Shown piece after piece: positions 35,371 to 59,000 of a stretch of DNA of 64,000 nt. Within the stretch, counting starts at the first letter, position 1, and every line of letters starts with the position of its first letter. This DNA comes from an uncultured Verrucomicrobiae bacterium (GTDB lineage: Bacteria > Verrucomicrobiota > Verrucomicrobiia > Limisphaerales > Palsa-1400): positions 960,001 to 1,024,000 of the forward strand of contig CAVXRD010000002.1 of the NCBI GenBank assembly GCA_963764165.1. Reading direction: 5' to 3'. The position numbers and the translations under genes are program-made. A model generated the notes under the pieces. It did no database searches and was not told the DNA's origin. It worked only from the letters and a program-made list of their open reading frames with translations.

Positions 35371-35501
35371 TCGCAGAGCGCTTTGCAACGCCAATGAAAC
35401 AAACCCGAATCCTCCCGCGCAAGCTCATTCGATGGCGCAGTTTGCGTTGCGCCCCAACATAGGTCTTGCAGCGATTCCCGCAACCTGCTACGCATTCGGG
35501 C

Positions 35502-35918
35502 GTGGCGCAACTTGAGATCCTGCACGTCGAAGACGACCCCGACGACGCGTTCTTTTTCCGGCGGGCGCTGCGCCTTGCTCACCCGGATTTTAATCTGCAC
35601 CTCGAAAAAAATGGCGAGGGCGCCATCAAGTATTTGGGCGAAGTGGAAAGCCGCCAGACGGACGATTCGCCTCCAGTTCCGGACTTGATGCTGCTGGATC
35701 TCAAACTTCCCGGGCTCTCGGGTTTTGATGTCTTGTCCTGGACGCGAAGCCGCGAGACGTTCAAGGCCCTGCCCATCGTCATCCTGAGCGGCTCCTCACT
35801 CGCCAATGACCGGAAAAAAGCGGACGAACTCGGTGCTTCCGATTTTATTGTCAAGAATAGCAACTATGATCAGATCGCAGGGCATATCCTCCAATTTTTA
35901 GCGAACAGCAGGCAGTAA
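35502..35918 (+). CDS. Single-domain response regulator (Rcp1/CheY-like)
   Basis: ILHVEDDPDD, PDLMLLDLKLPGLSG, ILSGS, DFIVK. Confidence 0.9.
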   Translation: MAQLEILHVEDDPDDAFFFRRALRLAHPDFNLHLEKNGEGAIKYLGEVESRQTDDSPPVPDLMLLDLKLPGLSGFDVLSWTRSRETFKALPIVILSGSSLANDRKKADELGASDFIVKNSNYDQIAGHILQFLANSRQ

Positions 35919-35927
35919 TTCCAACCC

Positions 35928-38039
35928 ATGAACAAACGGAACGCGTCCGTGATCCTTGTTTGTCCTAAATTGAACCGAACTCTCCAGGGCTTCGCATTTG
36001 CGATGGCGCTCTGCGGGCTTTTGTCGGGCCGCCTTGATGCGGCAGACGCGCCGCAGCCAACGAATCCCCCGCCAGCCGGAGAGGCAGACCGCCTCTCGGC
36101 CTTCAAGAGGATGAGCCTCGAGGAATTGCTGGACCAGCCGGTGACCTCCGTCTTAAAGACACCCGTCCCTTACGGACAGGCTCCATCCGCCATTCAAGTG
36201 ATTACTTCCGAGGACATTCAGCGCTCGGGCGCGATGACGATTCCCGAAGCGCTGCGCCTGGCGGACAACTTGGAAGTGGCCCAGATCAACGCGCACGATT
36301 GGGCCATCAGCGCGCGGGGATTTAACGCGGACCTTGCCGACAAGTTGCTGGTGTTGATTGATGGCCGCGCCGTCTATACGCCTCTTTACGGCGGTGTTGA
36401 ATGGAATGTGCAGGATTACGTGATGCAAGACATTGACCGCATCGAGGTCATCAGCGGCCCCGGCGGCACGCAATGGGGCGCAAACGCCGTCAACGGCGTT
36501 ATCAATATCACCACCAAGAGCGCCAAAGACACCCAGGGACTTTACCTTGAGGCGGGCGGAGGAAATGAATGGGACGATTTTACCAGCGTCCGTTATGGAG
36601 GCATGCTGGCCTCGAATGTTTATTTTCGCATCTATGGCAAATATTTCGATCACGACAGCGAAGAACTGTTGGATTACAAAAGCGCGGCGGATGACTGGGC
36701 CATGGGTCGCGGCGGTTTCCGCATAGACGCGCAAGGAACAGCCCAGGACTCCCTCACGGTGCAAGGCGATTTTTACAGTGGCTCGGAGGACCAGAATCCT
36801 GCCGCTCTGGAAGGGCTGGCCGGCGGAAATCTGCTGGCCCGCTGGGTGCACACATTTTCAGAGGATTCGGATATTAATTTGCAGGTCTACTACGACCGCA
36901 CACACCTGGCCCAACCGTTCAACGCCATCGCCCCTGACCCGGGCGTTTCGAGCGGATTTCCAGCCAGCGCGCTGGTGGATGATCTCAACACGTATGATAT
37001 TAATCTTCAGCATCGATTCCCTATCGGCGAATACAACAAAATCCTCTGGGGAACGGGCTACCGCTTCACCCATGAAGTCGACACCGACGCTTCGTTGATT
37101 CAATTTCTCCCTCCTGAGCTGGATCAAAACCTGTTCAACGCCTTTGTTCAGGACGAAATCACTCTCTACAAAAGCGTGACCCTGACCCTCGGCACCAAAT
37201 TGGAGCACAACGATTACACCGGCTTCGAGGTCGAGCCCAGCGGGCGGCTGCAATGGAAAATCACCGACAAGCAAATGGTGTGGGGAGCGATTTCGCGAGC
37301 GGTCCAAACACCCTCGCGTTATGATGAAGATTTGTATCTGCCGACGCACCTAACCATCGTCTTTCCGCCTTACCAATTTCCCAAGGCGTATTTGCAGGGC
37401 AATCCGGATTTTGATTCTGAAACGGTGATTGCGTATGAACTTGGCTATCGCGCGCAACTTGCCTCAAAGCTCTCCAGTTCCATCTCCGCATTTTACAACG
37501 ACTACGGCGATCTCCGCAGTGTCAGCGCGACGCCCACCAGCGAATACTATACGCTCGCCCTGCCAGATTATTTTGCCAACAATTTGGAAGGCGACACCTA
37601 CGGCTTCGAATGGACCGGCACTTATGAAATTCTCCCGAACTGGCGCCTGCATGCGGGCTACGATTTGCTCAAGGAGGATATTCACCCCAAGCCCGGAACG
37701 GTTGACATAACGGACGGCTATTACGGAAGGTCCGATCCACAGCAGCAATTCTCGATTCGCACTTCGATTGATCCCATTCCAGCCATAAGCCTCGACGCCG
37801 CCCTTCGCTGGGTCGACGAGCTGCACACGGTCGATTCGCCGACCACCGGGCCGGCTCTCGGAACAGTGCCAAGCTATTTCGAGCTCGATTCCCGGATTGC
37901 CTGGCGAGCGACAAAACACTGGGAATTTGCGATTGTCGGCCAGAATCTTTTGCACAGCCAGCACGTCGAATTTGGCTACCCCACCAGCCAGGAAGAAATT
38001 GTGCGAAGCGTTTTTGCCAAGGCCATTTTCCGCTGGTGA
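35928..38039 (+). CDS. TonB-dependent outer-membrane receptor
   Basis: Signal peptide; MSLEELL, plug VITSEDIQRSGA..LVLIDGR..IDRIEVISGPGG..GANAVNGVINITTK; C-terminal aromatic W. Confidence 0.93.
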   Translation: MNKRNASVILVCPKLNRTLQGFAFAMALCGLLSGRLDAADAPQPTNPPPAGEADRLSAFKRMSLEELLDQPVTSVLKTPVPYGQAPSAIQVITSEDIQRSGAMTIPEALRLADNLEVAQINAHDWAISARGFNADLADKLLVLIDGRAVYTPLYGGVEWNVQDYVMQDIDRIEVISGPGGTQWGANAVNGVINITTKSAKDTQGLYLEAGGGNEWDDFTSVRYGGMLASNVYFRIYGKYFDHDSEELLDYKSAADDWAMGRGGFRIDAQGTAQDSLTVQGDFYSGSEDQNPAALEGLAGGNLLARWVHTFSEDSDINLQVYYDRTHLAQPFNAIAPDPGVSSGFPASALVDDLNTYDINLQHRFPIGEYNKILWGTGYRFTHEVDTDASLIQFLPPELDQNLFNAFVQDEITLYKSVTLTLGTKLEHNDYTGFEVEPSGRLQWKITDKQMVWGAISRAVQTPSRYDEDLYLPTHLTIVFPPYQFPKAYLQGNPDFDSETVIAYELGYRAQLASKLSSSISAFYNDYGDLRSVSATPTSEYYTLALPDYFANNLEGDTYGFEWTGTYEILPNWRLHAGYDLLKEDIHPKPGTVDITDGYYGRSDPQQQFSIRTSIDPIPAISLDAALRWVDELHTVDSPTTGPALGTVPSYFELDSRIAWRATKHWEFAIVGQNLLHSQHVEFGYPTSQEEIVRSVFAKAIFRW

Positions 38040-38043
38040 TTCC

Positions 38044-38703
38044 GTGAGACAATCGATCACATGCCGATTTTTCCACGCAGTGGCGTTTGCCATGATCATT
38101 GCCCTTGGGCCATTCACAGTCACCCAAGCGCGGGCCGACGATGAACCCAACGAATACGAGTTGAAGGCGGTCATGCTTTTCAATTTGGCTCGCTTCGTCG
38201 AATGGCCGCAAAGCGCCTTCGCCACCTCCAACGCGCCCATCGTCATCGGCGTGATCGGCCGCAATCCTTTCGGCGATGCACTCGAAAAGGCGGTCAAAGG
38301 AGAAACCGTCAGCGGTCGGAAGATCACGGTGGAGCATTACGACAGCGTGAAGGAACTCCAGCGGTGCCACATCCTTTTTGTCTGCTCGAGCGAAAGGCCC
38401 CGGGTCAGCGCGATCCTGGCGAAATTGAAAGGCGCCCCGACTTTAAGCGTTTCTGAAATTGACGGATTTTCCAGAATGCGCGGCGGGATGGTTCTTTTTT
38501 ACACCAACAACCAAAAAAGAATTCGATTGCGGTTGAATTTGGAGTCGGCTCGCGCGGAAGGTCTGATCATCAGCTCCAAATTGATTCAGGTTGCGGAACT
38601 CGACAAGACAACCCTGCTCTGGCCGCGCGAGCCAATGTTGGGCGCCTCGAGCCTTTTCGCGGCCGCCTCGATGACCGTTCCAAATCCGGCGGCGCATCCA
38701 TGA
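38044..38703 (+). CDS. YfiR-family periplasmic protein
   Basis: EYELKAVMLFNLARFVEWP, IGVIGRNPFG, CHILFV, ISSKLIQVA. Confidence 0.9.
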   Translation: MRQSITCRFFHAVAFAMIIALGPFTVTQARADDEPNEYELKAVMLFNLARFVEWPQSAFATSNAPIVIGVIGRNPFGDALEKAVKGETVSGRKITVEHYDSVKELQRCHILFVCSSERPRVSAILAKLKGAPTLSVSEIDGFSRMRGGMVLFYTNNQKRIRLRLNLESARAEGLIISSKLIQVAELDKTTLLWPREPMLGASSLFAAASMTVPNPAAHP

Positions 38704-40163
38704 GGCTGCCGTCGCTCAGACGCCGTTTGCGGGGGGCGATGATCGTGACCAGCGCGACTTCGCTGCTGGTTGTCTGCGTCACTCTCCTGGCCTACGAACA
38801 CGCGGCCTTCAAGCGCGTTGAAGCGCAAAGCCTGGCCACCCTCGCGCGAAGCATCGCCATCAATTGCACCGCCATCCTCCTTTACGGCGATCCAAAACGG
38901 GGCGATGAATACCTGGCTTCGCTCAAGACCGAACCGGCCATCGTTGATGGGGCGCTCTACGATAAAAGCGGCCACCTGTTTTCGTTTTATCCAAGCACCG
39001 CCCCGCCAAGCCAATTCCCAAAATCTCCCGGCCCGGACGGTCTCGAATTTTCCGGGCTCAATCTGACGATAGTGCAACCCGCGATGCAGGACGAAGGCCG
39101 CATGGGAACCATTGTCATCCACGAAGACCTTCACGGAATGTATGGGCGCTTTGGCCTCTACGCGGTGGTGGTCGCGCTCGTCATGGCGGCGGCCATCGGG
39201 CTGGCATATCTGATTTCCGACTTTTTCCAGCGGCGCATTTCCCAGCCAATCCTAAACCTCGCGAGCGTCGCCCGGCGAATTTCGGAAAAGAACGATTTTT
39301 CCGTCCGCGTCGAAAACAGTTCGGTGGCCGAAGAGATCGACCTGCTCAACAAAGCCTTCAACGACATGCTCGAGCAGATTCACAGCCGCGACATTTCTTT
39401 GGAGCAAGCCCGCGCCGCCCTGGAGCAGCACGCCAAAGCGCTCGAAACCCGGGTGGCCGAACGCACTCGCTCCCTCGAAGAGACGACCCGCCAGCTATAC
39501 GATTTCTGCTATTCGGTGGCGCATGATCTCAAGGCGCCGATTCGCTCCCAAGCCGGCTACGCGCGGATTCTCATCCAGGATTTTTCACAGCAGCTCGGCC
39601 CCGAGGCGACAGAATACGCCGAACGCATTGCCGCGGCGGCGGACCGGCAGGACCGCCTTGTTTCGGACTTGCTCACGCATGTCAGCCTCGGCCGCAGCGA
39701 AATGCCAATGGAAAGCGTCGACCTGGCCTTGCTCGCGGAGCAAGTGAAGATGGATCTGACCGGCGAAATTCAGCGCTTGCAGGCGACCGTTAATTTGACA
39801 GATGTCAAAGGGGCCGTGGTGGCCAACCGCTCCTCGCTGAATTTGGTGATGATCAATCTTTTCACCAACGCCCTGAAATTCATCCCCCGCGGGCGGACCC
39901 CTCAGGTCAAGGCTTGGACGGAAGTTCGCGATGGCTGCATTCGGTTTTGGGTGCAGGATAACGGCATCGGCATTTCGCCGCAGCACATCGGAAAGCTATT
40001 TGCCGTTTTCCAACGGCTTCACACCCGCGAGGAATACGCCGGAACCGGAATTGGCCTTGCCATCGTCAAGCGCGCCGCCGAACGCATGAACGGCCGCGTT
40101 GGAGTGGAATCGGAAGAGGGAAAAGGCAGCCGGTTTTGGGTTGAGTTTGCCGCGGCGAAGTAA
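38700..40163 (+). CDS. Membrane histidine kinase with CHASE8/YfiN-like periplasmic domain and HAMP
   Basis: Two TM helices, HAMP (ISQPILNL..EEIDLLNKAFNDML), H-box FCYSVAHDLKAP, DNGIGI, GTGIGL. Confidence 0.92.
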   Translation: MRLPSLRRRLRGAMIVTSATSLLVVCVTLLAYEHAAFKRVEAQSLATLARSIAINCTAILLYGDPKRGDEYLASLKTEPAIVDGALYDKSGHLFSFYPSTAPPSQFPKSPGPDGLEFSGLNLTIVQPAMQDEGRMGTIVIHEDLHGMYGRFGLYAVVVALVMAAAIGLAYLISDFFQRRISQPILNLASVARRISEKNDFSVRVENSSVAEEIDLLNKAFNDMLEQIHSRDISLEQARAALEQHAKALETRVAERTRSLEETTRQLYDFCYSVAHDLKAPIRSQAGYARILIQDFSQQLGPEATEYAERIAAAADRQDRLVSDLLTHVSLGRSEMPMESVDLALLAEQVKMDLTGEIQRLQATVNLTDVKGAVVANRSSLNLVMINLFTNALKFIPRGRTPQVKAWTEVRDGCIRFWVQDNGIGISPQHIGKLFAVFQRLHTREEYAGTGIGLAIVKRAAERMNGRVGVESEEGKGSRFWVEFAAAK

Positions 40164-42279
40164 CTACGGAATCCACACTGCCCGCCAGAATTGGACGCCT
40201 GCCCCCGGGGCAATGGCATTTGTCACATTCATCGGCGAGTTTGTCAAAGCTATGGATGAAACGGTCGTCCATGAAAGCAGATTTGTCGACTTTTGCAGGA
40301 ACGTAAGGCGTGCCGGTTTGACCACTGACTTGCAACACGAGTTGATTGGAGGAGCTTGAGAGAAATTCGAGCGTCGGCGCCTCGGGTGGAAATGACAGCA
40401 CGGTGAGGGAATAGGGAGAAAAATTGTAATATAAATTGGTGGTTGGAATGCTGTTCGTGGAGATGTCGCAGGCACTGCTGCCTGCCTCGGCGGCGTTGTC
40501 CTGAGCCATGCCGTAGGAATAAATGGTGGCATTTGAGCCGGGGAGGAAGCCCTGGAGCGAAATCTGGCCGGTCAGATTTGTCACCGAATCCTTGCTGACC
40601 ACCAGCATGCTGAGCGATCCGTTTGTCCGCCTTGCCGCGTAAGTGGTGAGCAGCCTGTAACTGCTGGTGGCGGGCAAAATGGAATCGCCGGGACCCAAAA
40701 AAAGCTTCATCAGCTTCGCGGCGAAGTAAGTTGGGTAACGATCCGTCAAATTTGTGGCGAGGCCGTCCATCACACCAAGATCGCCATACATGCGCCAACC
40801 GTAGAGCGTGGAGTCCATGTCGCCCGATTCATCGACGCCGTTGCGAAGATCCCACCAGACAAACGAATTGAATTCCGTTTGCGTCAACATGCCAAAACTG
40901 TCGGCGCGGAAAAGCGCGTTGACGAGGCTGGTTGACTGTTTGCCCTGCGCGCCAGCGTCGCTGTTGTTTTCGGTGCAGAGCAGCTCGATGTTCGTGCCGC
41001 CAGCCCCGAAATAATTGCTGATCATTCCGCGCAAATTGCCCGCCGCGCCGATCCAGTTGGTGGTCACATCCAGCAGCCCCATATCGCTGTCGTTGCCGTA
41101 TTCGGGGTACCAGTGATAGATGGCAAAATCCGGCGTGACACCTAATTGCTTTAATGTGCTCATCACGACAGGCGTCCACCCGTAATGCACCTGGCCGGTG
41201 GTCTGATTGGTGGCTGGATGAGCGCTGTATCCGTTGCTGCTGGAGTCCTCGCCGGTGATGGTGACCACGCCGACTTTGATCGTTGGATCGACGGCTTTCA
41301 TTTGCTGGATGTAAGTTGCGGCGCGCGTCGCGTAAGTGAAAGGATCGTGCGGGTTGGCGTTGCTGTCGGTTTCCCAGGTTCCGTAAAGTTCGTTGCCCAC
41401 TTCCCAATATTTGAAGCCGTAATGGTTGGTGACATTCGCGCTCCTCACCCACGCCGCCGCCTCGGCTGGAGTGCCCGTGCCGTAATTGGCCGTGATGATG
41501 ACGTTTGCGCCGACGTTCGTTGCCACTGAGGCAAATGTTCTGAACGAGGTGGCCCATTGCCAAGTGTTGGAATCGGAGGTGTTCGAAGCCCAGTGGTAAT
41601 CATCCGCAGCCGACCCACCCGGAAATCGGAGGAACCGCAACCCCATGTCGTTCAACTCGGAAATGGTGGCAGACGTCCCAAAATCGCCGTCCCAGATTGC
41701 GGTATTAATTCCAAACCACCGGGCGTCGGCGGTGCGCAGGGATTTGGAGGCGTTGACGGAAAGGTACGTAATTTGGGGCGGCGGAAGCGGATTGAGCTGG
41801 ATCGAGTCGAGATAGAAAGTTGGGGCCGCATATGGAGAATTTAACTGCCACCAAAACCCATTAAAATTGCTTTGATATGCGACACCGAGCGACGAGAGCG
41901 GGATAGTGATCTGTCGCCATGCATTTGAAGCAAGCGTCGGCAGGGTCAAACTGCTTGCGGGGCTTCCGCCTAACACGCCGTGCAGGGTTATGTTCTGGCC
42001 TCCGACCGGCCCGCCGTTAATCCAGAAACTGACAGTTGTGTAAATGGAAGTGTCGAGATTGGGCGTATAAAGCCAGAGCGCGGAATAATTCGACGCCGTG
42101 ACACTGATGGAATCCGAGCCGGAATAGACGGGTGATGTATTTGTTAGATTGTTGGTGGCCCAGCTCCAATTTTGAAACCCATTGACGAGGCTGTCTGAAT
42201 AAATCACCAGCGGCGCCTGCGCCTCCACCCGCCCGACCCAAAACAAACCAACAGCGATCAGCAGGACGCGAAAAGACAT
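40164..42279 (-). CDS. Secreted clan GH-A glycoside hydrolase (GH51/GH44/GH79-like, alpha-L-arabinofuranosidase-like) with +1 frameshift near the 3' end
   Basis: Signal peptide, CBM-like N domain, LRFPGGS, WEVGNE (acid/base), TENN (nucleophile); C-terminus continues in the frame ending FWRAVWIP* at 40164. Confidence 0.8.
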
Positions 42280-42324
42280 GCTTACTTATAGCTCATTCCA
42301 CTGGGAACGCGCAACCTGAGCGTT

Positions 42325-43287
42325 CTAATCCTTCAGCGCGGACGTAATTGGCGCGAGAAAGAAGCAATCGCGGTCGTCCGGCGTCTGCTTGGTGGCGGTT
42401 GATCCCGTGCCGGTGTCGCCGATGGCGCTATAGGTGCGAGAGTCTGTCCATTTGTGGATGATGGAATGGCCGTCCGCGAATGAAATGCCCGCTGCCTGGT
42501 CATGGTTGCCCGCCGGGAAATCGATCAAATACGTCGCACCGGGCGAGGCGGCGGCGGAGATGGCCAGCGATCCGTCGTTGATCGACATCGGGTTTTCATC
42601 CATGGTTACAAATGTGTTGGCCGGACCGGGTTTCGTGAAAGAGGACAATTTGCCGTAAGTAAGATAATTATTGGCGGTGTAGCTTTGTCCATCCAGCCAC
42701 TCTCCTAGCACCGGGGATCCCAAGGGCGGCCCACCCGAAGTGTAAGCGCTGCTGCTGTTCCATACCGTGCCAACAGCAGAATTCATGGAAATGCTGCGCA
42801 CATGCACGCTCTTGGCTGGCGCGTCGAAGTAATTATCAGCCGGGCAATGGTAAACGTAGGCATTCGGCAGGTAATGGGACAAAGCTGTGCCGATCGGATC
42901 CGTCAGTTCGCTCAACATCGCCGCGTCGATCGGCTGCTCCATCGTCCCGCAAACCCAATTCTTCATGGAAATTTTGTTGCCAGACGTGTAATAGCATGTC
43001 TCGTAGGGAAAGTCGTTTGGGGCCAGCAAATCGTTATTGTCATCGGCATACATGTGCCATGCCAGCATTATCTGGCGGCCGTTGCTCATGCATTGGGTGG
43101 ATTGAGACTGCTGCTTGGCGTGCGACAGCGCAGGAAGCAGCAGCGCAGCCAGAATCGCGATAATGGCGATCACCACCAGCAGTTCGATAAGCGTGAATCC
43201 ACCTCGCAAAGGCGACGGCGGGCGCGAACCGCAACCCATGCCATGGGTTGCAGCCCTCGCGCCCGCCGTGTGACGACCTGATCTCAT
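42325..43287 (-). CDS. Prepilin-type N-terminal cleavage/methylation protein with H-X9-DG motif
   Basis: [52 protein letters not shown]. Confidence 0.92.
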
Positions 43288-45311
43288 GGATTGATGTTGA
43301 AAGCGGTGCTATTGGCCGGGGCGATGTTCGTGCTGGTCACGTCCGTCGCGGTAACGACCACATTGTTGCCGGTGCTTCCAAAGTAGATGGTATATTGGCC
43401 AGAGCCGTTGACCAATGCCGCGTTATTTGGATCAAACCCGCCGCCATTGTCCGTGATCTGAATCGTGTCGTTGATCCCGGGAACCGGATTGAAGTGGGCG
43501 TCCGTCGCCAGAACCGTCACGGTCAACAGTCCGCCGCTGGCGCTCAAGCTGAATGGCGTCGGTGTGCCCACCTTTCCAGTGGACGTATTAGGCGCGTTGG
43601 TCTCGCCGGGCAGCAGCACCAGCAATTGAGAGAAAGTGCGCTGCACCACGGCGAAAAACGCATCCTGCCCTGCGGGCAATGAATTGGTCGAGAGCAAGGC
43701 TTGGTAGGTGGCGCCGTCTTTAATGGTCAGCGTCGGCGTGATGTTGCCCCATCCCTCGGTCAGATTGGTAGCGGCCGCCAGCGCATAATTGGGCGCGGGC
43801 AAGGACCAGCCAACCCAGTAGGCTGCGCTGCTAGGTATCAAGAGACAGCCGTTGGTATCGTTCGAAAGATCTTCCCAGTAATTGGTGTTCAAGGAGCTGT
43901 CCGTTGTGAAGTTGTCAGTAAAGGCGGCCGATGTCCCTGTTAAGGAGAAGCTGCTGTAAATCACAGCCTGGGTTTCTGGCAGGCCCGTGTAGCCCGCAGT
44001 GTTCGGCTGTGCGCCGAGAATCAGCGTAACCGGGTCGGCAAAGAGCGCCGCGGAGGCTGCATCCATGGTGAAATTCGTCGACGCCCCGCCAGGCGCGGTA
44101 AGTGTTATATTCGTCGTGTCGGAGAACGTCAGGCTCCAGGTGCCCAGCAATGGCGCACTGTCAAATCCAACAATCGGCATCACCGGCCAGCCATTGGGGT
44201 CGCCGGCGGCATTTGTCGGCGAGGTGGTATTGAACAACATGCCGTTGCCGGCGATTTCATTGGTCTTGTATCGGAAATTAGCAATGCCGCCACCGTTGCC
44301 ATCGGATTGAATCGTCAGGAAAATGCAGTTGGCTAGATTGTAGTCAGCCGCTTGATCGTAGGGGCCTGGATAGTAGGTCTGCGTGGTGGTGCTGTCGCTG
44401 CCCGAGACCATGAAAAAATGCGCCTGATAACTGTAGGCGGCATCATTCGTCGGGAACTTTTTGATGGTCCACGAATAGGTCACGCTGGATTGCCCCACGA
44501 ACGACAGCCCGCCTGCGCCATCATTTGTATCGGCGATTTGGTAACGGTTGTACTGCGCGCTGGGGCTGGTGTCGATCAAGTTGAGTCCTGTGACAGGCTT
44601 CTCAATAGTCAGTGTTGGTGGTGGAGGCGGAGGCGCCACGGAGCCGTTGATCGATATATTATCAATCCAGTTGGTGATGGTGAAAAGCGGGTAGCCACCG
44701 TACGAGTTAATATCCAAGGCGATCCCGGGAACATCGCCAAATCCCTGGGTTTGGTCGATCGGAACAGAAACATGAAACCAGTTGGACGAGGCACTGGCCG
44801 GAATCGTCACGGTCCCGCCCGTAATCGCCTCGTAGCCGTAGCCACTGCTGATGAAGCCCACCTGGATAGCCCCATAATTGCCGCTGGAACTCAGCGGCGT
44901 ATTTGACGCAACCAATATATCAAACGAGACAGAGCTGAACTTGGTTGTATCCGCCTCCGTGCTGAAATTATAAGATCCGCTGTCCGCAAAACAGCCGAAG
45001 AACACGTCCTGGGTGTACCCCGCCAGCGGACTGATTACCTCCAACGATCCTGAATCAGACGTGTTGGCGCCTGCCACAGGGTTCGAAGCATCGGTCGTCG
45101 GGTCGGTTATGATGGGTTGGTTCCCGCCGGGAGAATTATACCAATAGATCCAAGTGGGATCGTAAAACTGCCCTTCGTCGGGGCCACTGGTGGGGAATGT
45201 AAAAGCATAGGTGTTGGTGATGATGGTCTGGGCGTGAGTTGGTGAAGGCGAACTGGCCAGAGCCAGCATGGCGATGGCTGATCCAGACAACAGGCGTTTA
45301 AGCGTATTCAT
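43284..45311 (-). CDS. Large secreted Thr/Asn/Gly-rich hypothetical protein
   Basis: Signal peptide ending THA|Q; beta-rich composition; poly-Pro linker; ATGA overlap with the prepilin gene. Confidence 0.85.
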
Positions 45312-45581
45312 AGATTTTGAGTGAAGGGACGGGACGACGTGTTTGCCGTGTGCATAACATGGATTGCGGTGATCATGCGCTATTGCGATCCATTTGTCAC
45401 CAACGCATTTGGTTTGGTTTGAACTACGCCTTTAGTATAGGTTTTTTGCCCCCTGAGTGCGTGGTTGCCCTGCTGGCGCGACTTTGCGAGGCTCACAGGC
45501 ATCATGCCCGTCATCAAGCCAGCCTCCGCCGCATCCCTTTCCGGCGTTGAAGGTTCCCGGATTCTCTGGCAATATGACCCC

Positions 45582-47717
45582 ATGTTCACTCTGCATCTCC
45601 GGGGCGCGGCCACTCCGTTGGCGCTGCGCGCGGCCTTTTTGGGAGGTCTGCTCCTTTCCATTTCCGCGCGGGCTGACACCAACAACGCGCCATCCGCTCT
45701 TCCAGTCTTGACGTCCACTCGCGAGATTCGTGAAATGGCGCCGGAACAGGCGGCGCGGCGCTATCCCGCGCTCGTGAGGGGGGTCGTGACATTTTGCGAT
45801 GCCAAGGCCGACTGGGCCATGTTCATTCGCGACGCCGTGTCTGGAATTTACGTCAAACTCGGTGACGGCAGGAATTTTGAGGTGGGCGATCAAGTGGAGG
45901 TTTCCGGCTACAGCCAGGCTGGCGATTTTGTGCCGTTTGTCTATGCGACCGAGGTGAAAGTTCTTGGCCACGGTTCGCCGCCCCCTCCGACGCCGGTTTC
46001 CTTCGAACAACTGGCCACCGGCAAGGAAGACAGCCAATGGGTGGAATTGCGCGGGAAAGTCCGCTCGGTTGTGCCCAGCACCCAGGGCAAAACACGCTTG
46101 GACCTGTTGGTCGATGGCCAGCGCCTGAGCGTATTGATCACGCGATTTGATTGGACGAATCCTGGCGAACTCATTGGCGCGACAGTCCGCATTCGCGGAG
46201 TCTGCCGGACCCGCTTTAACAATAAACGCCAGATTTGCGCCCCCTACATCAGCGTCACGAGTTCGTCCGACATCACGGTGGATATTCCCGCCACAGGCGA
46301 GCCTCCCACCGTATCGTTGACTCGATTGTTGTGGTTTAATTCGGATGGTTACTATGGCCGGCGGGTCAAGGTGCCCGGCGTGGTCACGGAACAAAAAGGC
46401 ACCACGCTTTTCATCCAGGACGGCGGCGACGGGCTTTACGTCAAAACAGACCAGACCAACGACCTCAATCCCGGCGACATGGTGGAGGCCGAAGGCTTTC
46501 CGCTGGTCGGCCAGTATTCGCCAATCCTCGAGGACGCCACTGTAAAATGCGTCGGGCACACTTCTCCTCCCCAGCCGATCAACGCGCGCCTTGATCAATT
46601 ATTTTCGGCGGATTACGAGTGCGAGCTGGTTCGCGTGCGCGGAACGTTGATGAACGAAGTCCACCGGGCAGGCGAGCAGGTGCTGATCATTGAAGGAGAC
46701 AATTTGATTCTCAACGCGCGCCTCGACGCGGCCAAAGCCGACCCGCAGTTCATGCACCTGGAAAAAGGAACCCAACTGGAATTGACCGGCGTCTGCCTTG
46801 CGCAGCCAATGGAGAATTGGAACCCTTCCGTCGCGACCCGCCCCGAGACGTTTCAGCTTCTGCTCCGCTCCGCCGGCGACGTCGTCGTCATCCAAAACCC
46901 GCCATGGTGGACATTGTCGCGCCTGCTTTGGACGCTGGGAGCGATGAGCGTGGTCCTTTCCGCCGGCTTTGCCTGGGTATTTATTCTTGACCGCCGCGTC
47001 CGCCAGCAGACGACGATCATCCAGCAGAAACTCCACCGGGAAGCTGTGCTGGAGGAGAGAACGCGCATCGCCCGCGAATTTCACGACACGCTGGAGCAGG
47101 AATTGGTCGCCATCACCATTCAATTGGAAACGGTCGCGGCCAAATTTGACGAATCGCCGCAGACCGCGCGGCAAATGCTGGAGCTGGCCCGCAACATGAG
47201 CCGCCGCAGCCTCTTCGAAGCCAAGCGCTCCGTCTGGGATTTGCGCTCGCACCTTTTGGAAAACAGCAGCCTGCCGACCGCCATCTCAGAAGTGGCAAAG
47301 CTCATTACGCGCAGCTCGGGACTGCAAATCGAAGTCGAGACGGCCGGCCTGCCGCGCCGTCTGGCGCCGCAAATCGAAAATAATTTGCTGCGAATCGCCC
47401 AGGAGGCCCTGGCCAATGTCTTGAAACACGCCCGCGCCACCCGCGTGGCCGTGCGCCTCGAGTACCAGCCGGTCAAGGTTTCGCTCAGCATCATTGACAA
47501 CGGCGTTGGGTTCGACACCGCCAGCCAGGCCGCCGCCTACGGCGGGCATTTTGGTTTGATGGACATGGGTGAACGGGCCGAGCGCATGGGCGGCCGTTAC
47601 ATCATGCTCAGTTCGCCGGGCCAGGGAGCGGAAATCCGCGTCGAGGTGAATTGCAAAGATGAACTTTTCCCCGTCGGCGGACCGATGTCCGAGTTAGACG
47701 CGCGAACGGCCGCGTAG
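45582..47717 (+). CDS. NarX/HisKA_3-type sensor kinase with tandem extracytoplasmic OB-fold-like repeats
   Basis: Signal peptide; repeats VRGVVT..FIRD..GDQVEVSG and VPGVVT..FIQD..GDMVEAEG; PPWWT+TM; EERTRIAREFHDTLEQ; DNGVGF; GHFGL. Confidence 0.9.
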   Translation: MFTLHLRGAATPLALRAAFLGGLLLSISARADTNNAPSALPVLTSTREIREMAPEQAARRYPALVRGVVTFCDAKADWAMFIRDAVSGIYVKLGDGRNFEVGDQVEVSGYSQAGDFVPFVYATEVKVLGHGSPPPPTPVSFEQLATGKEDSQWVELRGKVRSVVPSTQGKTRLDLLVDGQRLSVLITRFDWTNPGELIGATVRIRGVCRTRFNNKRQICAPYISVTSSSDITVDIPATGEPPTVSLTRLLWFNSDGYYGRRVKVPGVVTEQKGTTLFIQDGGDGLYVKTDQTNDLNPGDMVEAEGFPLVGQYSPILEDATVKCVGHTSPPQPINARLDQLFSADYECELVRVRGTLMNEVHRAGEQVLIIEGDNLILNARLDAAKADPQFMHLEKGTQLELTGVCLAQPMENWNPSVATRPETFQLLLRSAGDVVVIQNPPWWTLSRLLWTLGAMSVVLSAGFAWVFILDRRVRQQTTIIQQKLHREAVLEERTRIAREFHDTLEQELVAITIQLETVAAKFDESPQTARQMLELARNMSRRSLFEAKRSVWDLRSHLLENSSLPTAISEVAKLITRSSGLQIEVETAGLPRRLAPQIENNLLRIAQEALANVLKHARATRVAVRLEYQPVKVSLSIIDNGVGFDTASQAAAYGGHFGLMDMGERAERMGGRYIMLSSPGQGAEIRVEVNCKDELFPVGGPMSELDARTAA

Positions 47718-47727
47718 CACGCATTTT

Positions 47728-48360
47728 ATGACAACGAAAGATAAAATCCGGATCATGGTGGTCGACGACCATTTTGTGGTGCGGATGGGATTGCGGGGTT
47801 CCATCAATTTGGAGTCGGACATGACAGTCATCGCCGAAGCGCCCAATGGCGACCAGGCAATCGCGCTCTACCGGCAGGAAAGACCCGACGTCATTTTGAT
47901 GGATTTGAAGCTGCCGGGAATGAGCGGCGTCGAGGCCACGCGGCTGATTTGCAAGGAATTTCCCGGCGCAGCGATCATCATGCTCTCCACCCACGACGGC
48001 GAAGAGGATATTTATCGCTCCCTGGTGGCGGGCGCGAAAACGTATTTGTTGAAAACCGCCAGCCGCAGCGAATTGATCGACGGCATCCGCGCCGTTCACG
48101 GCGGCGAACGCCACATCTCGCCCGCCATTGGCGCGCGCCTGGCGGAACGCATGTCGCACCCGGAATTAACGACACGGGAAATTGAGGTGCTTGGCTTGAT
48201 CGTCAAAGGGCGCAGCAACAAGGAAATTGCCTCTGAATTGGCGATCGCGGAAGTGACGGTGAAATTGCACGTCGGCCATGTGCTGTCGAAATTGGGAGTC
48301 AACGACCGCACGCAAGCCAGCACCACCGCATTGCAGCGGGGAATTATACATTTTGACTGA
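47728..48360 (+). CDS. NarL/LuxR-family DNA-binding response regulator
   Basis: VVDDHFVVRMG, DVILMDLKLP, LTTREIEVL..GRSNKEIA..TVKLHV. Confidence 0.95.
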   Translation: MTTKDKIRIMVVDDHFVVRMGLRGSINLESDMTVIAEAPNGDQAIALYRQERPDVILMDLKLPGMSGVEATRLICKEFPGAAIIMLSTHDGEEDIYRSLVAGAKTYLLKTASRSELIDGIRAVHGGERHISPAIGARLAERMSHPELTTREIEVLGLIVKGRSNKEIASELAIAEVTVKLHVGHVLSKLGVNDRTQASTTALQRGIIHFD

Positions 48361-48441
48361 AGCACGGCTGGGCGAGAATCCATCGAGCCCTGATTGAAAC
48401 ACGGAATTTACAGAACCATCTCAATACATCGAGGCAATCCT

Positions 48442-49356
48442 ATGCAAGCGATTATCAAAATCCATAATGGGCTCGACAGAGTCTCGCCCTGCCGGGAATG
48501 GAGGGAGAAAGAGGGGCGGGCTTTCACCCTCATCGAATTATTGGTGGTCATTGCGATCATCGCCATTCTCGCGTCGCTGCTGCTGCCGGCCCTTGCCCGC
48601 GCCAAGCAGCAGGGAAACCTCTCCAAGTGCGTCTCGAATCAAAAGCAGCTCGGCGTGGGGTTCAGCCTTTACCTTGGCGATAACAATGACGTTTATCCCG
48701 CCGCCGCCTGCGACGGCGCCGATAATTCTCAATACACTTGGGACACATCGCTGAACCATTACATTGGCGGAAATCCCGCTTTGAACAAAGCCGAATTGGA
48801 CAGCGGCGCAGTCTCAAACGTATTGACGCCGCAGGTGCTGCGCTGCCCCTCGGATATCGGCCCCGACTCGTATTGGGCGGCGGGCAGCGGTTATGGGCGC
48901 CGCACCTACTCGATGAATGCGATCAGCCAGACTGAGTATTCCGCAACCTTGGGGGCCGCGCTGCCGACTCCGGTCAACGGATTGGGAATTTATTGGAACG
49001 CCCCAACCACCGTGCAGGGGGCTCCGGGCTACAAGGCGGGCGTGGTGCAGGATCCCGCCGGCACGATCAATTTGGTGGAGGAACCGGCCGGCGACAACAT
49101 GTGCGGAAACGTCTGGCCTTCATTCTGCCTCGGTCCGGTCAACGATCTGTATAGCGGCCAGGGCGTGGGAGAATGCTACCAAATCGGCACCCACGATCCG
49201 AACAACCAGGGTCTTGCTCTTTACCAATTGCAGGGGAACAAATTCAGCTACCTCTTCTTCGACAACCACGTTTCGATTCTCTCCGTCCAACAAACGGTCG
49301 GAACCGGCACCACAAACATTCCAAAAGGGATGTGGACGCTGACCGCTGGAGACTAA
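48442..49356 (+). CDS. Prepilin-type N-terminal cleavage/methylation protein (degenerate H-X9-DG)
   Basis: [59 protein letters not shown]. Confidence 0.9.
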   Translation: MQAIIKIHNGLDRVSPCREWREKEGRAFTLIELLVVIAIIAILASLLLPALARAKQQGNLSKCVSNQKQLGVGFSLYLGDNNDVYPAAACDGADNSQYTWDTSLNHYIGGNPALNKAELDSGAVSNVLTPQVLRCPSDIGPDSYWAAGSGYGRRTYSMNAISQTEYSATLGAALPTPVNGLGIYWNAPTTVQGAPGYKAGVVQDPAGTINLVEEPAGDNMCGNVWPSFCLGPVNDLYSGQGVGECYQIGTHDPNNQGLALYQLQGNKFSYLFFDNHVSILSVQQTVGTGTTNIPKGMWTLTAGD

Positions 49357-50222
49357 CGCGTCGATGGCGCGCCGGGCGTCGCCGGATAATCGTTTGAGGT
49401 CAGCAACCGGCGGCCACCGCCGACAAACACATGGCCGTCATCGGTCAAGCGGAGCCGCGGGCGGGATTCGGAATATTCGTGATACTGGCGGGCCAGGAGA
49501 GTCCCGCTGGTATTGATTTCGCAATAAGTGAAGACACGGGCCCCCGTTTGAACCAGGACATGGAAATGGTTGAACCGATCCATCTCCGCCTCCGGATCAC
49601 GGAAATCAACAATGCGCGCCAAAGGATAGACACGCAACGGACGGCCGGTTCCGTCAGACAACTGGAAATACAATCTCATCTGGTCAAGAAATGAGACGCG
49701 AAGGAGGCCATAACGGCGAATATCAGGCGGCGCGTTGGTCACGCCAGCGGGAAGCGGCACGCCGAAAGCGAGATCGCCCAGGCCGGTCAAAGGCGTTCCC
49801 TTTTCCACCGTAAAAATAGCGGGCTTGCACGCCATTTCCTGTTTCCATTGCGGAATCCGGACGACGGCCCGCAGCGAATACCGTCCCGGTTTGCGGAAAT
49901 CGAAATAGGGCGTGATGTTGAATTCGCGCACGATGGTTTGCCCGGTCATCAGCGTAAATGCCTGCTTGACCGGCATCTCTCCCAATTTATGGGCGACGTA
50001 TTCATGCTCGCCGATGACATCAAAGCTGATCCAATTGGTCGTCGCGCCCAGAATGAGCGGCTGGCCGGAGCGATTCACAATCGTCAGGGTGGCGCGGACA
50101 TCTTCGCCGGACAGGTATTGCTGCTGGTCGATTTCGAGATCGAGCGTAACGCCGTTGTGCTGCGCCATCACTGTGTGAGCCATGGCGCAAAGCAAGACAA
50201 ATACAATGGCGAATTTCCTCAT
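49353..50222 (-). CDS. Secreted hypothetical protein
   Basis: Signal peptide MRKFAIVFVLLCAMAHTVMA; Ig-like N-terminal strands (YFDFRKPGRYSL). Confidence 0.75.
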   Translation of the reverse strand: MRKFAIVFVLLCAMAHTVMAQHNGVTLDLEIDQQQYLSGEDVRATLTIVNRSGQPLILGATTNWISFDVIGEHEYVAHKLGEMPVKQAFTLMTGQTIVREFNITPYFDFRKPGRYSLRAVVRIPQWKQEMACKPAIFTVEKGTPLTGLGDLAFGVPLPAGVTNAPPDIRRYGLLRVSFLDQMRLYFQLSDGTGRPLRVYPLARIVDFRDPEAEMDRFNHFHVLVQTGARVFTYCEINTSGTLLARQYHEYSESRPRLRLTDDGHVFVGGGRRLLTSNDYPATPGAPSTR

Positions 50223-50307
50223 GGGACGAGTGTAGAGAGGCGGCGCCCCGATTTCAAGCTGGATAAAGACCTTTCGCAGGCGCTGCACAAATTTCTCGCC
50301 CACCGCC

Positions 50308-54560: not shown

Positions 54561-54938
54561 GCCTTCCACCCCGGCCCCATGTTCTTGGGTTTTATCCACG
54601 TGATACTTAGGATATAGTGTCAATACCCCGCCTGTTTGCAAGCTAATTCCAGCCTAGGGGGGGAGGCTGGCGCTGCCCCGTTATCGGCTGTCTGGACCAA
54701 AGACTTGAATGATTTCGGAAACGCTGTCAGGACCGATAATTATCAATTTTTGGAGAAAAACTGAGGGAAATTGAATCTTGAACGACCAAACTCGCAAAAG
54801 AGGCCCCCTGAAACGATCCAAGCGGATTGGGAGCGCGGCCGCCCTAGTCGTCCAATCCTGAGTTCTTGAGTAAATTCGGCGTTGACTTGGCAGGCGGGGA
54901 GTTTCAATTTCCTCACAGCCGTGCAGCGGCTCAAACCC

Positions 54939-55929
54939 ATGAATAGCACCGAAGCCATGTTTTCCAATAAAGCCCCGTCGACCTCGGGAGCAAAAGATGT
55001 GTTGGTTCACGTTGACGATTACACCCAGCCCACAGGCTGGGTGAACCCGGCAGACGCGGCCAGCCGCTCCCGTGAATGCTGCGCGCAATTGGAAGCGGGC
55101 AAAGTGCTTTGCTTCGAACGCATACCGTATCTTTTCCCACGCGAGAACCAGGAATTCCTGCTGTCGCAGCGCCAGACCGAATCGCGCCTGCACAAAAATG
55201 TCTCTTATCGACCGGCACAGGACATTTTGCGCGGCGCGGCCGGCGATGCCGTGGAAACGACCCGCCTGCACGACGTCATGCGGAAATATTTCGGCGGAAG
55301 TGGCGCTCTTCATCAAGCAGCTGCTCGCGCCTTACGCGGGCGAAATGGCGCTCGATTACGCCAGCTTCCGCCCCGAAGAGGAAAAAGGCCGCGACCTGCC
55401 GGTTCACAAGCGCAACGATTTGCTGCATTGCGATTCCTTCCCGACCCGCCCGATGAACGGCCGCCGGATTTTGCGCTGCTTCACAAACATCAACCCCACC
55501 GCCCCGCGCGTCTGGCACACGACCGAGGATTTCTCCAAACTCGCTTCAAAGTATGCGGAAAAGGCGGGGCTGGCCGGGTTCGCAGCCAAGGGAAGCCCCA
55601 AGGCCAATCCGCTGGTGAAGAGCATCAAGAAAGCGCTCGGCCTCAAGGCGGTGGATCATTCGGCCTATGACCGTTTCATGCTCCGTTTTCACGATTACTT
55701 GAAGGAAAATGGAGATTTTCAGGAGAACTGCCCCAAGACACGCCTTGAATTTCAACCCGGCTGGACTTGGATTTGTTACACCGATTCCGTGGCCCACGCG
55801 GTTTTGTCCGGCAGATTTGCGCTGGAGCAGACGTTTATCATCTCGGTCAATTCGCTGGTAACGCCGGAGAAAGCGCCAATCCGAATCCTAGAGAAGCTCG
55901 CTGGCAAATCACTGGCGCGCGCCGCTTGA
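54939..55929 (+). pseudogene. Kdo hydroxylase (KdoO family), frameshifted
   Basis: HKNVSYRP in the first frame; ASFRP, LHCDSFPTRP, RILRCFTNINP, SAYDRFMLRFHD, HAVLSGRFALEQT in the second; extra T at 55289-55291. Confidence 0.82.
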
Positions 55930-56002: not shown

Positions 56003-59000
56003 ATGCTAAACCATCTCGTTTCCTGCGCAAGGCGCCGCATTTTTTGCCGGGTCCATTTTACTGAGGCACTCATTTTCTTCAGTTTTGCCGTCCTGATTTT
56101 TGGCCTATCCGCCGCAAAAGCGGCGACGAACATGATGCCGATCAGCCTGACCGGCTGGAATGCCGATGTCGTCATCGAGGCGGCTGCCGCAGGTCCGCCC
56201 TTTAACAGTTACGCCTCGGAAGTGAATGCGGGCGAAGGAAATGCATATTATCAAACAGGGCTGCCGCAATACGCCTGGGGCATGCCCCCTTCGGGAACCC
56301 TTGCCAGCCTGGTTGGCGACCGGACCATATTTCAATTGCAGCCGTATACGGCCAATAACGCCCTCGTCCTTAGCCCCGACACAGGGCTGACCAATGGCAC
56401 GCTTTATTTGACAAATCCGGCGACTTACGCGCGTCTGGCGGTCCTGGCGAATTCAGCCAACGGCACCAATCAAACAGGGTCGGTCACGCTTAATTTCAGC
56501 GACGGAACGGCGGTGACCAACACGCTTTTCGCGCCGGATTGGATGAACGGCACGGTCAATGTCGCATGGTTTGGGCCGGGCCGCGTCAATTTGAGCAGCG
56601 GCGCGGACACGACCGGGCCCGAGAATCCCTGCTTTTACCAGACCACCATCAACGTCCTCGCTCTGACGGGCGGCACGAACAAAACGCTCCGCAGCCTGAC
56701 GTTCGGCAAGGCCCAGGCCAATTCGACTTTGATTTACGCCGTGAGCGGATTGCTCGCGGGCAGCACGCCACCCGGCGGGACGCCCGTCGCGGTCACTGGC
56801 TGGAATCGGGACATCATGATTGAAAACACCGCCAGTGGGCCGCCCTACGGGAATTACGCGCTGGAATTTAATCCCACCGAGGGGACCGCCTTCTACCAAT
56901 CTGGCCTGCCCGGCACCACTTACGGATTGCCGCGCAATGGCGCATTCGCCAGCGCGGTGGATTCGACGCTGTTTCAATTGCAGCCTTACACTGCCAGCAA
57001 TGCGCTGGTGATGAGCTCGGAAACGGGAATTGCGCAAGGAACGCTGACGCTCGTGGCGCCAGCGATCTACAACAGCATTGATATTCTCGCCAATTCCGCG
57101 GGCGGCGGCGGGACGCCGATGGCCACGATTTACTTTTCCGACGGCACGAGCCTGACGAATGCCTTCAATGCGCAAGACTGGTTCCTGGGATCACCGGAGA
57201 CGGCGCTGCAAGGCTTCGACCGCATCGTCATGCAATCCGGGGTGACGCAGGGCGGCCCGGTCAATCCGCAGTTTTACCAGACCACCGTCGATCTTGTCGA
57301 ACGGCTGGGAGCCGGCAACAAACCGATTTCGAGCATCACCTTCAATCAGGCAGCCGGCGCGGGCGCGACTGGCATTTACGCCTTGAGCGGCGTCCTTGCG
57401 AACCAAACCAATGGAAATTATTCGCTGCCGGTGGCGTCCATGGATGCGGCTTCGGGAATCTCCCCGCGCTCCGCCACGCTGACCGGGACGGTGACGGCGA
57501 CTGGCGGGGCCGCCCCGGAAATTATTATTTACTACGGCACGGCGGACGGCGGCACGAATGCCAGCGCGTGGGCCGCGAGCGAATTTCTCGGATTTCAATC
57601 CGGCAATTATTCCCTGCCGCTGGCCGGATTGTCTGTCAATACAACTTATTATTACCGCGCCATCGCGATTAATCCGGCAGGAGCGAGTTGGTCGGCGTCG
57701 TCGCAGAGCTTCGTGACAGCGTCAGCTTCCGACCCGGCGGTGACCAACATACCGGCATTCAACGTCGGAGCGGTGTCGGCGATTCTCTCGGGAATGGTAA
57801 CTTCCACCGGCGGCGATGCGCCTGCCGTCACGTTGTATTACGGCCTGTCCAACGGCGGAACAACCGCCGGCTCGTGGGCGAATAGCTTCACTCTGCCAGG
57901 CGTGCAGAGCGGCGTCTTTGCCGAGGCGGTGGCCGGACTCGCTCCGAATACAACCTATTATTTTACAGCCCAGGCATCCAATGCGGCCGGCACAGTGTGG
58001 GGTTCGCCGGTTCAAAGTTTTACCACTGCCTCCAACGCCATTTCGCAGACAAATCTCTTCGCCGTCCTCACGGGCCGCGACGACAACGCGCGAACGGGCC
58101 AGAATACGAATGAAACGATCCTGACTCCGGCCAATGTGAATTCAAACAGCTTTGGCAAACTGTTTTCCTATGGGTTGGATGGTTACATGATGGCGCAGCC
58201 GCTCATCCTGCCGAACGTGAACATTCCCGGGAAGGGCGTCCACAATCTCGTCATCGCCGCCACCGAGCACGACAGTGTTTACGCGTTTGATGCCGACAGC
58301 AACGCCGGTCCTAACGCCCAGCCGCTCTGGCACACCAGCTTCATCGATCCCGCCGCGGGAATTTCGCCGCTCCAATCGGCGATCGATCTGCAAGCGAGCA
58401 CATCACCGAGCTTTTACGGGCCGGAAGTCGGCATTCCCGGGACGCCGGCGATTGATGCGGTGACGGGAACCGTTTATGTCGTGGCCAAGACGAAGGAGAT
58501 TTCGGGAGGCACGTCGAATTTTGTGCATCGCCTGCACGCGCTGGACGTTTCGACCGGGGCGGAAAAATTTGGCGGGCCGGTTGTCATTGACGGGACGGTG
58601 TTCGGAGTGGGAGATGGTCTTTCGCCGCTGGATACGGTTCCGTTCTCGTCCTACAAGCACATGAATCGACCGGCGCTGCTCTTGCAGAACGGAGTTCTTA
58701 CGGTGACGTTCACCTCGCACCAGGATTTTCCGCCGTACCACGGATGGGTCTTCACTTACAACGCTTACACCTTGCAACAAACCGGTGTCTATAACACGAC
58801 TCCCAACGGTTCGGCGGGTGGTCTCTGGCAGGCGTCGAGCGGCCCCGCGGCGGACGCGAATGGGAATATTTATTTTGAAACCGGCAACGGAACTTTCGAC
58901 GCTGACAATCAAAATTATGGCGACAGCGTGGTTAAACTTTCGACGGCGGGCGGCGGATTGGATTTTGTGGATTATTTCACGCCCTACAACCAACTCATGC

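Follow-up and report, generated by a model that had tools for sequence, protein, structure and literature searches.

A Conserved Prepilin–Hydrolase Cassette of Verrucomicrobiota: A Candidate Unit for β-Glucan Foraging

Introduction

Verrucomicrobiota count among the major degraders of polysaccharides, and the genome of the uncultured Verrucomicrobiae bacterium considered here (GenBank assembly GCA_963764165.1) has no match to SusD and carries ~82 pilin-like genes. What might pilin-like proteins have to do with glycans? The question is raised by a six-gene locus at positions 40164–49356 of a 64,000-nucleotide stretch of contig CAVXRD010000002.1 (the window), in which two prepilin genes stand beside a glycoside hydrolase, a large exported protein (BIG), a sensor kinase, and a response regulator. 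We find that these genes recur together across the order, and that a conserved box upstream of BIG tracks the regulator. We propose that this conserved cassette is an inducible β-glucan foraging unit, and give this reading a probability of roughly one half; support is good for regulation and co-conservation, moderate for the β-glucan substrate, and weak for the binding role of the pilin. For two particular pilin orthogroups, the cassette provides fixed partners along with a predicted class of substrate and a predicted operator, and is thus a testable case for the role of a large pilin-like family. It also adds a probably unclassified family of clan-A hydrolases, a new module related to CBM8, and a C-terminal domain of sorting type that is common and has no name.

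Results and Discussion

Layout of the Locus

The features that the argument leans on are as follows.

40164..42279, minus strand: hydrolase, 704 residues when intact (open reading frame as read, 40066–42279)
40164..40330, minus strand: C-terminal domain of the hydrolase, ~52 residues, common to 127 predicted proteins of the genome
41785..42219, minus strand: CBM8-like module of the hydrolase (E 2e-22 to 7T7Y)
42325..43287, minus strand: prepilin-1, N-methylation helix and ~240-residue head
43284..45311, minus strand: BIG, 675 residues
45372..45400, minus strand: weak sigma-70-type promoter of BIG (GTGACA, 17 nt, CATGAT)
45424..45443, minus strand: conserved box, predicted operator of the regulator, consensus CTATACTWWRGTA
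45465..47717, plus strand: sensor kinase, HisKA_3 and HATPase (likely start ATG 45582)
47728..48360, plus strand: response regulator of NarL/LuxR type, Response_reg and GerE
48442..49356, plus strand: prepilin-2, a Q-X9-DN variant (open reading frame opens at 48394)

The initial annotation, which had read this locus as a self-regulated glycan-utilization module, described its layout correctly. All six genes lie on the strands that it gave: BIG (43284–45311), prepilin-1 (42325–43287) joined to it by an ATGA overlap, and the hydrolase form a leftward run, and the kinase and regulator diverge from BIG, with prepilin-2 also on the plus strand. The domains HisKA_3, HATPase, Response_reg, and GerE bear out the two regulatory assignments. 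The claim that SusD, ABC transporter, and core genes of a type II secretion system (T2SS) are missing agrees with Pfam and NCBIfam scans, in which none of the six genes matches such a family. Its end for the hydrolase, 40164, is correct as well. A frame change near 40300 masks this end in the open reading frame; tblastn finds the tail in the shifted frame (E 7e-17), and a 704-residue copy from an independent assembly, 99.4% identical, has the tail intact, for which reason the frameshift is probably an assembly error. No convincing terminators were found (10 matches versus 11.8 expected).

Co-Conservation across the Order

We searched 401 genomes of the order and scored 2–6 candidates per genome, so the resulting counts are lower bounds. 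Matches to BIG occur in at least 165 genomes, to the hydrolase in at least 83, to prepilin-1 in at least 29, and to the wider prepilin-2 group in at least 111. Hydrolase neighborhoods were taken from the best 72 of 102 matches (the 30 weaker or partial ones were left out), which gave 70 loci once the genome's own copy had been dropped and two entries merged. Of these 70 loci, 38 have a BIG-type gene with domain D2 no farther than 6 kb away, as do 32 of the 49 that extend at least 6 kb upstream. Among the 27 hydrolase loci that have BIG and at least 9 kb upstream, 21 contain a pilin, 13 prepilin-2, 12 a small lipoprotein, and 9 prepilin-1, and neither prepilin nor the lipoprotein was found at any of 15 hydrolase loci without BIG.

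The same association is seen from the other genes. Prepilin-1 adjoins BIG in 24 of 32 matches (21/29 together with L053, L058, and L060), and 3 of the other 8 are at contig ends. For prepilin-2, the best 36 of 130 matches gave 31 loci, 15 of which have BIG within 6 kb. In the 31 genomes of the family, a BIG-family match is found within 6 kb of 18 of 21 regulator matches, two of the 18 covering D1 only, and the regulator's closest relatives (73–79% identity) adjoin BIG-family genes. The proposal that BIG, prepilin, hydrolase, and regulator are co-conserved in related genomes is therefore upheld by 38/70, 24/32, and 18/21, counts that come from related genomes and are not independent events. The pairings exceed what chance would give: the genome, at 7.0 Mb, has only three strong BIG-family genes, yet the same pairs are seen in many families of the order. 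In its fullest form, the order is sensor/regulator, lipoprotein, prepilin-2, BIG, prepilin-1, hydrolase.

Cassette copies also occur on contigs titled Saccharimonadales (L031) and Pseudomonadales (L043), for which mislabeling or mis-binning is a more likely explanation than transfer.

A Box That Tracks the Regulator

Fourteen stretches between kinase and BIG genes were aligned, and 12 contain the core of the box; the other two are truncated at mis-called starts, and the matrix finds sites at both of these loci. Each of the 12 promoters that carry the box has a copy starting exactly 40 bp upstream of the −35 hexamer GTGACA, and two loci not used for training show the same spacing; the hexamer is kept in the promoters of 12 relatives. 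In the window, the −35/−10 pair of BIG is the pair given by the promoter scan, and the combination of box and GTGACA at 40-bp spacing occurs once in the genome. At a score of at least 15 bits, the box is present at 0 of 41 BIG loci without a regulator orthologue versus 2 of 2 with one, which at the genomic level is in line with the self-regulation that had been claimed. The exact pattern has 17 matches in the 31 genomes of the family, and in 15 of these the regulator or BIG is no more than 3.5 kb away. Of the 17, 8 had been used for training, and 7 of the remaining 9 lie at the cassette. The pattern is not over-represented (17 matches versus 23 for the reversed control), and the box is informative through its position only. 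Outside the training set, it is found before the lipoprotein–prepilin-2 unit (L033, L070), before extra BIG copies (L056, L064), and before another prepilin (L089). On this basis, the regulator likely binds the box and activates the operon; the activator role fits because the box sits upstream of the −35 element.

The sole other strong box in the genome is an exact copy 65 bp upstream of a GH3 gene (C2:3027524; L180:9525-11348). We rejected this gene as a member of the regulon, as none of 18 related GH3 genes has the box and the 40-bp spacing is lacking.

The kinase has a signal peptide, a periplasmic part with four repeated β domains, one membrane helix, and the HisKA_3 and HATPase domains. 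Its description as an OB-repeat kinase stands as far as the repeat is concerned (repeat 1 versus repeat 3, hhalign 98.5%); OB-fold identity is suggested by sub-threshold Pfam matches, and the repeats are probably OB folds. Three of its paralogues in the genome score above the Pfam PA14 cutoff. Some BIG loci without a regulator orthologue carry other sensors, such as a kinase of Reg_prop/Y_Y_Y type.

The Hydrolase

The hydrolase consists of a signal peptide, a CBM8-like module (residues ~21–165), a catalytic part resembling GH44 and GH51, and the C-terminal sorting-type domain. In the module, W38, W40, Y63, and Q145 align with W572, W574, Y600, and Q686 of DdCBM8, as matched by hand from printed alignments with the binding residues given in the accessible part of PMC9079177. 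According to that part of the source, CBM8 binds cellulose and glucomannan (PMC9079177).

The catalytic part can be aligned over its whole length with the GH44 that the genome itself encodes (hhalign 96.7%, 24% identity), including the nucleophile region and the C-terminal sandwich. The N-E and T-E glutamate motifs of a GH44 fall on E297 and E437, which are invariant in 10 hydrolase orthologues, as expected for the two glutamates of clan GH-A; E297 is the predicted acid/base and E437 the predicted nucleophile. The enzyme is thus like GH44 and GH51 in its catalytic glutamate positions and C-terminal β-sandwich and like CBM8 in its binding residues, and unlike them in that neither GH44 (PF12891) nor GH51 matches it in Pfam. 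GH51 similarity over the full length, including the nucleophile region, was not found, and the NCBIfam model ArfA scores 16 bits against a cutoff of 625. As judged from these alignments, the hydrolase is probably a clan-A enzyme between GH44 and GH51, of an unclassified family or subfamily.

The count of 127 proteins with the ~52-residue C-terminal domain comes from our own gene caller and hidden Markov model (HMM). In 115 of the 127, the domain lies within 15 residues of the C-terminus, and no NCBIfam model for it was found. It is likely an export or surface-sorting signal, and a candidate for a lineage-specific one.

The Large Exported Protein

The clustered database contains 142 homologues of BIG, hardly any of which have a name; comparisons with Pfam, NCBIfam, and PDB sequences gave no match of note, and in the Atlas the protein falls with unnamed Verrucomicrobiota clusters at 0.90. 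A whole-model Foldseek search was uninformative. The predicted model (mean predicted local distance difference test score, pLDDT, 86) divides into four domains.

Residues 29–227, D1: sandwich of carbohydrate-binding-module (CBM) type, followed by a poly-Pro linker
Residues 239–494, D2: ConA-like jellyroll
Residues 495–557, D3: probable diverged sorting domain
Residues 558–675, D4: Ig-like

The best fold match of D1 is the N-terminal domain of GH51 (Z 14.2, rmsd 2.8, 160 residues aligned), and CBM27, CBM30, and CBM22 match as well. D2 matches GH16 (Z 13.9) and L-type lectins (Z 12.8), and D4 matches Ig domains found in GH2 enzymes. Such Z values are moderate, and fold alone proves no function. 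D1 is homologous to the CBM8-like module of the hydrolase (hhalign 95.9%; controls <1%) and is elsewhere fused to GH44 catalytic domains; two BIG paralogues followed by GH44 occur at L063 and L065. D3 bears a weak likeness to the C-terminal domain of the hydrolase (hhalign 53%) and stands at the end of many shorter homologues, which stop right behind it, and the tail HMM matches D3 in 0 of 71 sequences at E < 0.001.

We considered whether D2 is a GH16 enzyme. The fold fits, but E-x-D-x-x-E, which we take to be the catalytic motif of that family, is not conserved in the alignments, and this assignment was rejected. Conserved R, Q-x-H, and G-x-Q-x-N elements of D2 presumably resemble the motifs of PL7 lyases, to which the fold also matches (Z 10.5). 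No recognized catalytic domain was found in BIG, and the 71 family members are without a Pfam match. The models and alignments together predict that BIG is a carbohydrate-binding protein.

The Prepilins and a Lipoprotein Partner

Both prepilins score above the N_methyl (TIGR02532) cutoff and have the cleavage motif and hydrophobic helix; the motif and E5 are almost invariant in 149 sequences. Prepilin-1, a distinct orthogroup present as a single copy in the genome, has the motif GFTLIELL and an exact H262-X9-D272-G273. The H-X9-DG type that had been given for prepilin-1 thus holds. Prepilin-2 has Q-X9-DN instead and forms a second orthogroup, most members of which have H or Q followed by DG, with Q and N variants occurring. 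Scans of the two proteins with PF07596 and TIGR04294 gave no match; PF07596 is found on 3 of the 120 prepilin-1 homologues listed, and Atlas neighbors (score 0.98) carry it in 20–51% of their members. The Verru_Chthon cassette models (TIGR02596–02600) match in the helix only, at 15–24 bits versus cutoffs of 70–256. A complex prediction for BIG 28–675 with prepilin-1 53–320 scored 0.00 twice, with controls not folded, and speaks neither for nor against a contact.

Directly before prepilin-2, 24 of 31 loci have a gene for a lipoprotein of ~90–140 residues with a lipobox, a Pro/Ala linker, and a conserved ~55-residue domain (for example, L033:5413-5763 and L034:8434-8820, and 9 more). It has no convincing NCBIfam match, and a weak relative is encoded at C2:3056333-3056698 of the genome. 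The idea that it mimics a pilin head was unsupported (hhalign 0.4–0.7%).

Machinery and Recurrence of the Design in the Genome

The genome comprises 7.0 Mb in 5 contigs and is 97% complete. It encodes 5 secretins, 14 ATPases of T2SS/type IV pilus type above the cutoff, 1 prepilin peptidase, and 12 TonB receptors, and T2SS-like gene clusters are present. SusD was not matched, and a Bacteroides control was detected by the same search. The estimate of ~82 pilin-like genes lies between 76 (regular expression) and 86 (phmmer). A tail-bearing protein is found within 1.5 kb of 15 of the 82, versus a background of 6.3%. Of 11 repeat-sensor kinases, 8 lie within 5 kb of a pilin, versus 13% for genes of similar size.

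Of the other repeat-kinase loci, nine were covered and one was left out; among the selected genes scanned from these nine loci, Pfam glycoside hydrolases were found at five (GH16 + GH3; GH20 + GH18 + GH78; GH5; GH38 + GH92; GH115). One locus, L171 (C1:106000-122000), is a sister module of the cassette: a repeat-sensor kinase and regulator diverge from a 1312-residue exported protein, a prepilin, and GH16, with GH3 nearby. At another, L177 (C2:3510000-3528000), a PA14 kinase diverges from a prepilin and a D2-bearing 777-residue protein, followed by an esterase and GH115; two short transposase-like open reading frames lie between the pilin and the 777-residue partner.

Comparison with Known Systems

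Polysaccharide utilization loci (PULs) of Bacteroidota are defined by a SusC/SusD pair. The analogy to a PUL that had been drawn holds in that a sensor-regulator, a protein predicted from its fold to bind glycans, and a carbohydrate-active enzyme are together in one locus, and some relatives of the cassette have Reg_prop/Y_Y_Y sensors. It fails at the defining pair, which is missing from the cassette; the nearby TonB receptor is of TOL_0244 type. The cassette also differs in its pilin-like genes and in the C-terminal sorting-type domain of its exoproteins.

The closest published case is in Verruconatronum alginivorum, where, in the accessible part of PMC13274419, the alginate-induced operon pgaptmp_000046-60 includes a pseudopilin that resembles PulG and belongs to a set of 67 paralogues; the T2SS is encoded at another site. 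It is like the cassette in being a polysaccharide operon of Verrucomicrobiota that contains a pseudopilin and unlike it in belonging to a different order, in its substrate (alginate lyases), and in a putative uronate transporter; a BIG-like protein, the lipoprotein partner, and the operator are features of the cassette, none of which is described for that operon in the same part of the source (PMC13274419). In Akkermansia, MUL2 (amuc_1099-1102) combines a PilM protein with an archaeal-type pilin (PMC13174399) and likewise ties a pilus-type part to glycan capture in Verrucomicrobiota. The cassette, in contrast, combines N-methyl prepilins of H-X9-DG type with a hydrolase and a sensor and contains no assembly gene, and the PilM family has no match among its six genes in the Pfam scan.

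Proteins with N_methyl and SBP_bac_10 (DUF1559, PF07596) or H-X9-DG (TIGR04294) form an expanded family, as described in the accessible parts of PMC8567305 and PMC4807772. The prepilins resemble what is given there: they share the cleavage motif and H-X9-DG, belong to families with dozens of paralogues in a genome, and have neighbors with signal peptides. The difference is that in the cassette two specific orthogroups are tied to fixed partners and an operator. Caldicellulosiruptor tapirins, as far as the available portion of bioRxiv 10.1101/359786 describes them, bind cellulose without being catalytic, are encoded next to genes for pili and glucanases, and are needed for attachment. BIG is similarly a predicted binding protein, with no catalytic domain recognized, beside genes for pilins and a putative glucanase; according to the same portion, tapirins differ in their Gram-positive host, β-helix, and full pilus locus, as compared with the CBM, ConA, and Ig domains of BIG.

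A literature search that left supplements and most subscription papers outside its scope found nothing on the cassette or its operator, nor on BIG, the lipoprotein, or the tail. The claim of an undescribed system may hold for the cassette itself and has to be narrowed in that a pseudopilin in an alginate-induced operon is already published (accessible part of PMC13274419).

Proposed Model and Alternatives

In the foraging model, the neighboring kinase would sense a glycan, and the regulator, on binding the conserved box, would activate the BIG–prepilin–hydrolase operon. The hydrolase may then cut β-1,4-glucan extracellularly, with cellulose, glucomannan, xyloglucan, or mixed-linkage glucan as candidate substrates, and BIG would bind the polymer. 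The prepilin may supply a glycan-specific head to a pilus or pseudopilus whose machinery genes lie at other sites in the genome. Export could follow a type II-like route through the C-terminal domain, and uptake would be left to transporters outside the locus.

Several observations weigh against this model. Its steps of induction, binding, and enzyme activity are predictions from sequence. Co-conservation supports a module, but not a fixed one: 6 of the 27 hydrolase loci with BIG and at least 9 kb upstream have no pilin at all, no more than 11 of the 27 have a LuxR-type regulator in their vicinity, and sensors are swapped between lineages. BIG-family genes are found in at least 165 of the 401 genomes versus at least 29 for prepilin-1, and at least 5 of the 32 prepilin-1 matches have no BIG nearby although their flanks are complete. 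The divergence of prepilin-1 is little correlated with that of BIG (rho 0.14) or the hydrolase (rho 0.30) over 18 loci. Glycan binding by the prepilin-1 head is suggested by context alone; the head is modeled at pLDDT 35 from a 12-row alignment, and no solved relatives beyond the helix were found. The window has no lipoprotein, and its prepilin-2 trails the regulator with no box upstream and may be read through from that gene. No transporter was found that recurs in the cassette across related loci. Shuffled genomes yield single box matches of the same score as the GH3 site. Finally, by sequence the catalytic part of the hydrolase matches GH51 arabinofuranosidases best (E 8e-16), over the N-terminal half (~205–340) only, and its substrate may accordingly differ from β-glucan.

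This last point leads to the alternative that the model is otherwise correct and the target is an arabinose-containing hemicellulose (arabinoxylan or arabinan) attacked by a GH51-like arabinofuranosidase. The top PDB matches of the catalytic N-half, the weak ArfA match, the closeness of BIG D1 to the GH51 N-terminal domain, and a second D2-bearing gene of the genome near GH115 and an esterase all point this way. The GH51 match, however, is limited to residues ~205–340, the nucleophile region and sandwich align with GH44, and cellulose and glucomannan are the CBM8 ligands named in the accessible part of PMC9079177, so that we regard an arabinose target as unlikely. The possibility that abundant pilin genes (~82 per genome) hitchhike in a loose neighborhood of carbohydrate-active enzymes without a common function would account for parts that are frequently lost or relocated and for the separation of prepilin-2 from BIG in 16 of 31 loci, some of them contig-limited. 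It is hard to reconcile with the same two pilin orthogroups, among dozens of paralogues, keeping fixed positions over many families, or with a box that accompanies the lipoprotein–prepilin-2 unit where this is separately transcribed, and appears very improbable.

Two further alternatives concern what the prepilins do. As cargo-specific adaptors of a T2SS pseudopilus, they would aid the export of the hydrolase and BIG without glycan contact. The ATGA coupling of BIG and prepilin-1, the enrichment of pilins near tail-bearing exoproteins, and the T2SS-like clusters are consistent with this role, and in the accessible part of PMC13274419 the authors suggest that the T2SS exports the alginate lyases of the pseudopilin operon. 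We nevertheless prefer a binding role to an adaptor role in export because exoprotein genes are also found at loci lacking a pilin, because the exoproteins share a general tail with more than 100 proteins, and because pilin and exoprotein divergence are not in step, BIG being much more variable than prepilin-1 (mean identity 34% versus 51%). With 6 of 27 loci pilin-less and 15 of 82 pilins adjoining tail-bearers (67 have no such neighbor), a dedicated pilin is seemingly unneeded for export, and the adaptor role is unlikely, if credible. Alternatively, the prepilins could be inner-membrane, periplasm-facing proteins that bind oligosaccharides or signal together with the lipoprotein or kinase and never enter a filament. 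Such a role is compatible with the lipoprotein that precedes prepilin-2, with the repeat-sensor kinases near pilins, and with planctomycete N_methyl and SBP_bac_10 proteins that, according to the accessible part of PMC8567305, fractionate unlike plain pilins. The near-invariant cleavage motif and E5 are what processing and assembly predict, and the lipoprotein is absent at the window locus; we consider this role quite improbable.

Beyond the foraging model lies a generalization that is somewhat unlikely as a whole. H-X9-DG prepilins may serve as exchangeable heads, each specific for a glycan, on one common retractile pilus or pseudopilus, and each may be induced together with a sensor, a lectin-like exoprotein, and a hydrolase of its own. 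The dozens of paralogues within a genome of the Planctomycetota–Verrucomicrobiota–Chlamydiota (PVC) group would then form a SusC/D-independent repertoire for capture and import. The cassette would be the β-glucan module of this repertoire and would bring a GH44/GH51-like family that is new and a C-terminal sorting signal that has no name.

Neighboring Genes in the Window

A TonB receptor (35928–38039), 2 kb from the hydrolase and oriented toward it, scores above the NCBIfam TOL_0244 cutoff and far under that for SusC. It belongs to a separate signaling cassette at 35466–40163, convergent with the hydrolase, in which a lone receiver gene is followed by the TOL_0244-family receptor, a YfiR-like protein, and a CHASE8 kinase. 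On the other side, a single-copy gene for a 316-residue protein without a Pfam or NCBIfam match (49353–50303, opposite strand) overlaps the prepilin-2 stop and was not seen among the related loci displayed. A third prepilin, with both N_methyl and SBP_bac_10 above their cutoffs, lies at 7231–8463. At 54882–55929, a Kdo hydroxylase (PF11004) is broken across two frames, a probable second assembly frameshift in the window, and 56003–60694 encodes a 1563-residue protein with Fn3, chitobiase-C, and LamG domains, outside the cassette.

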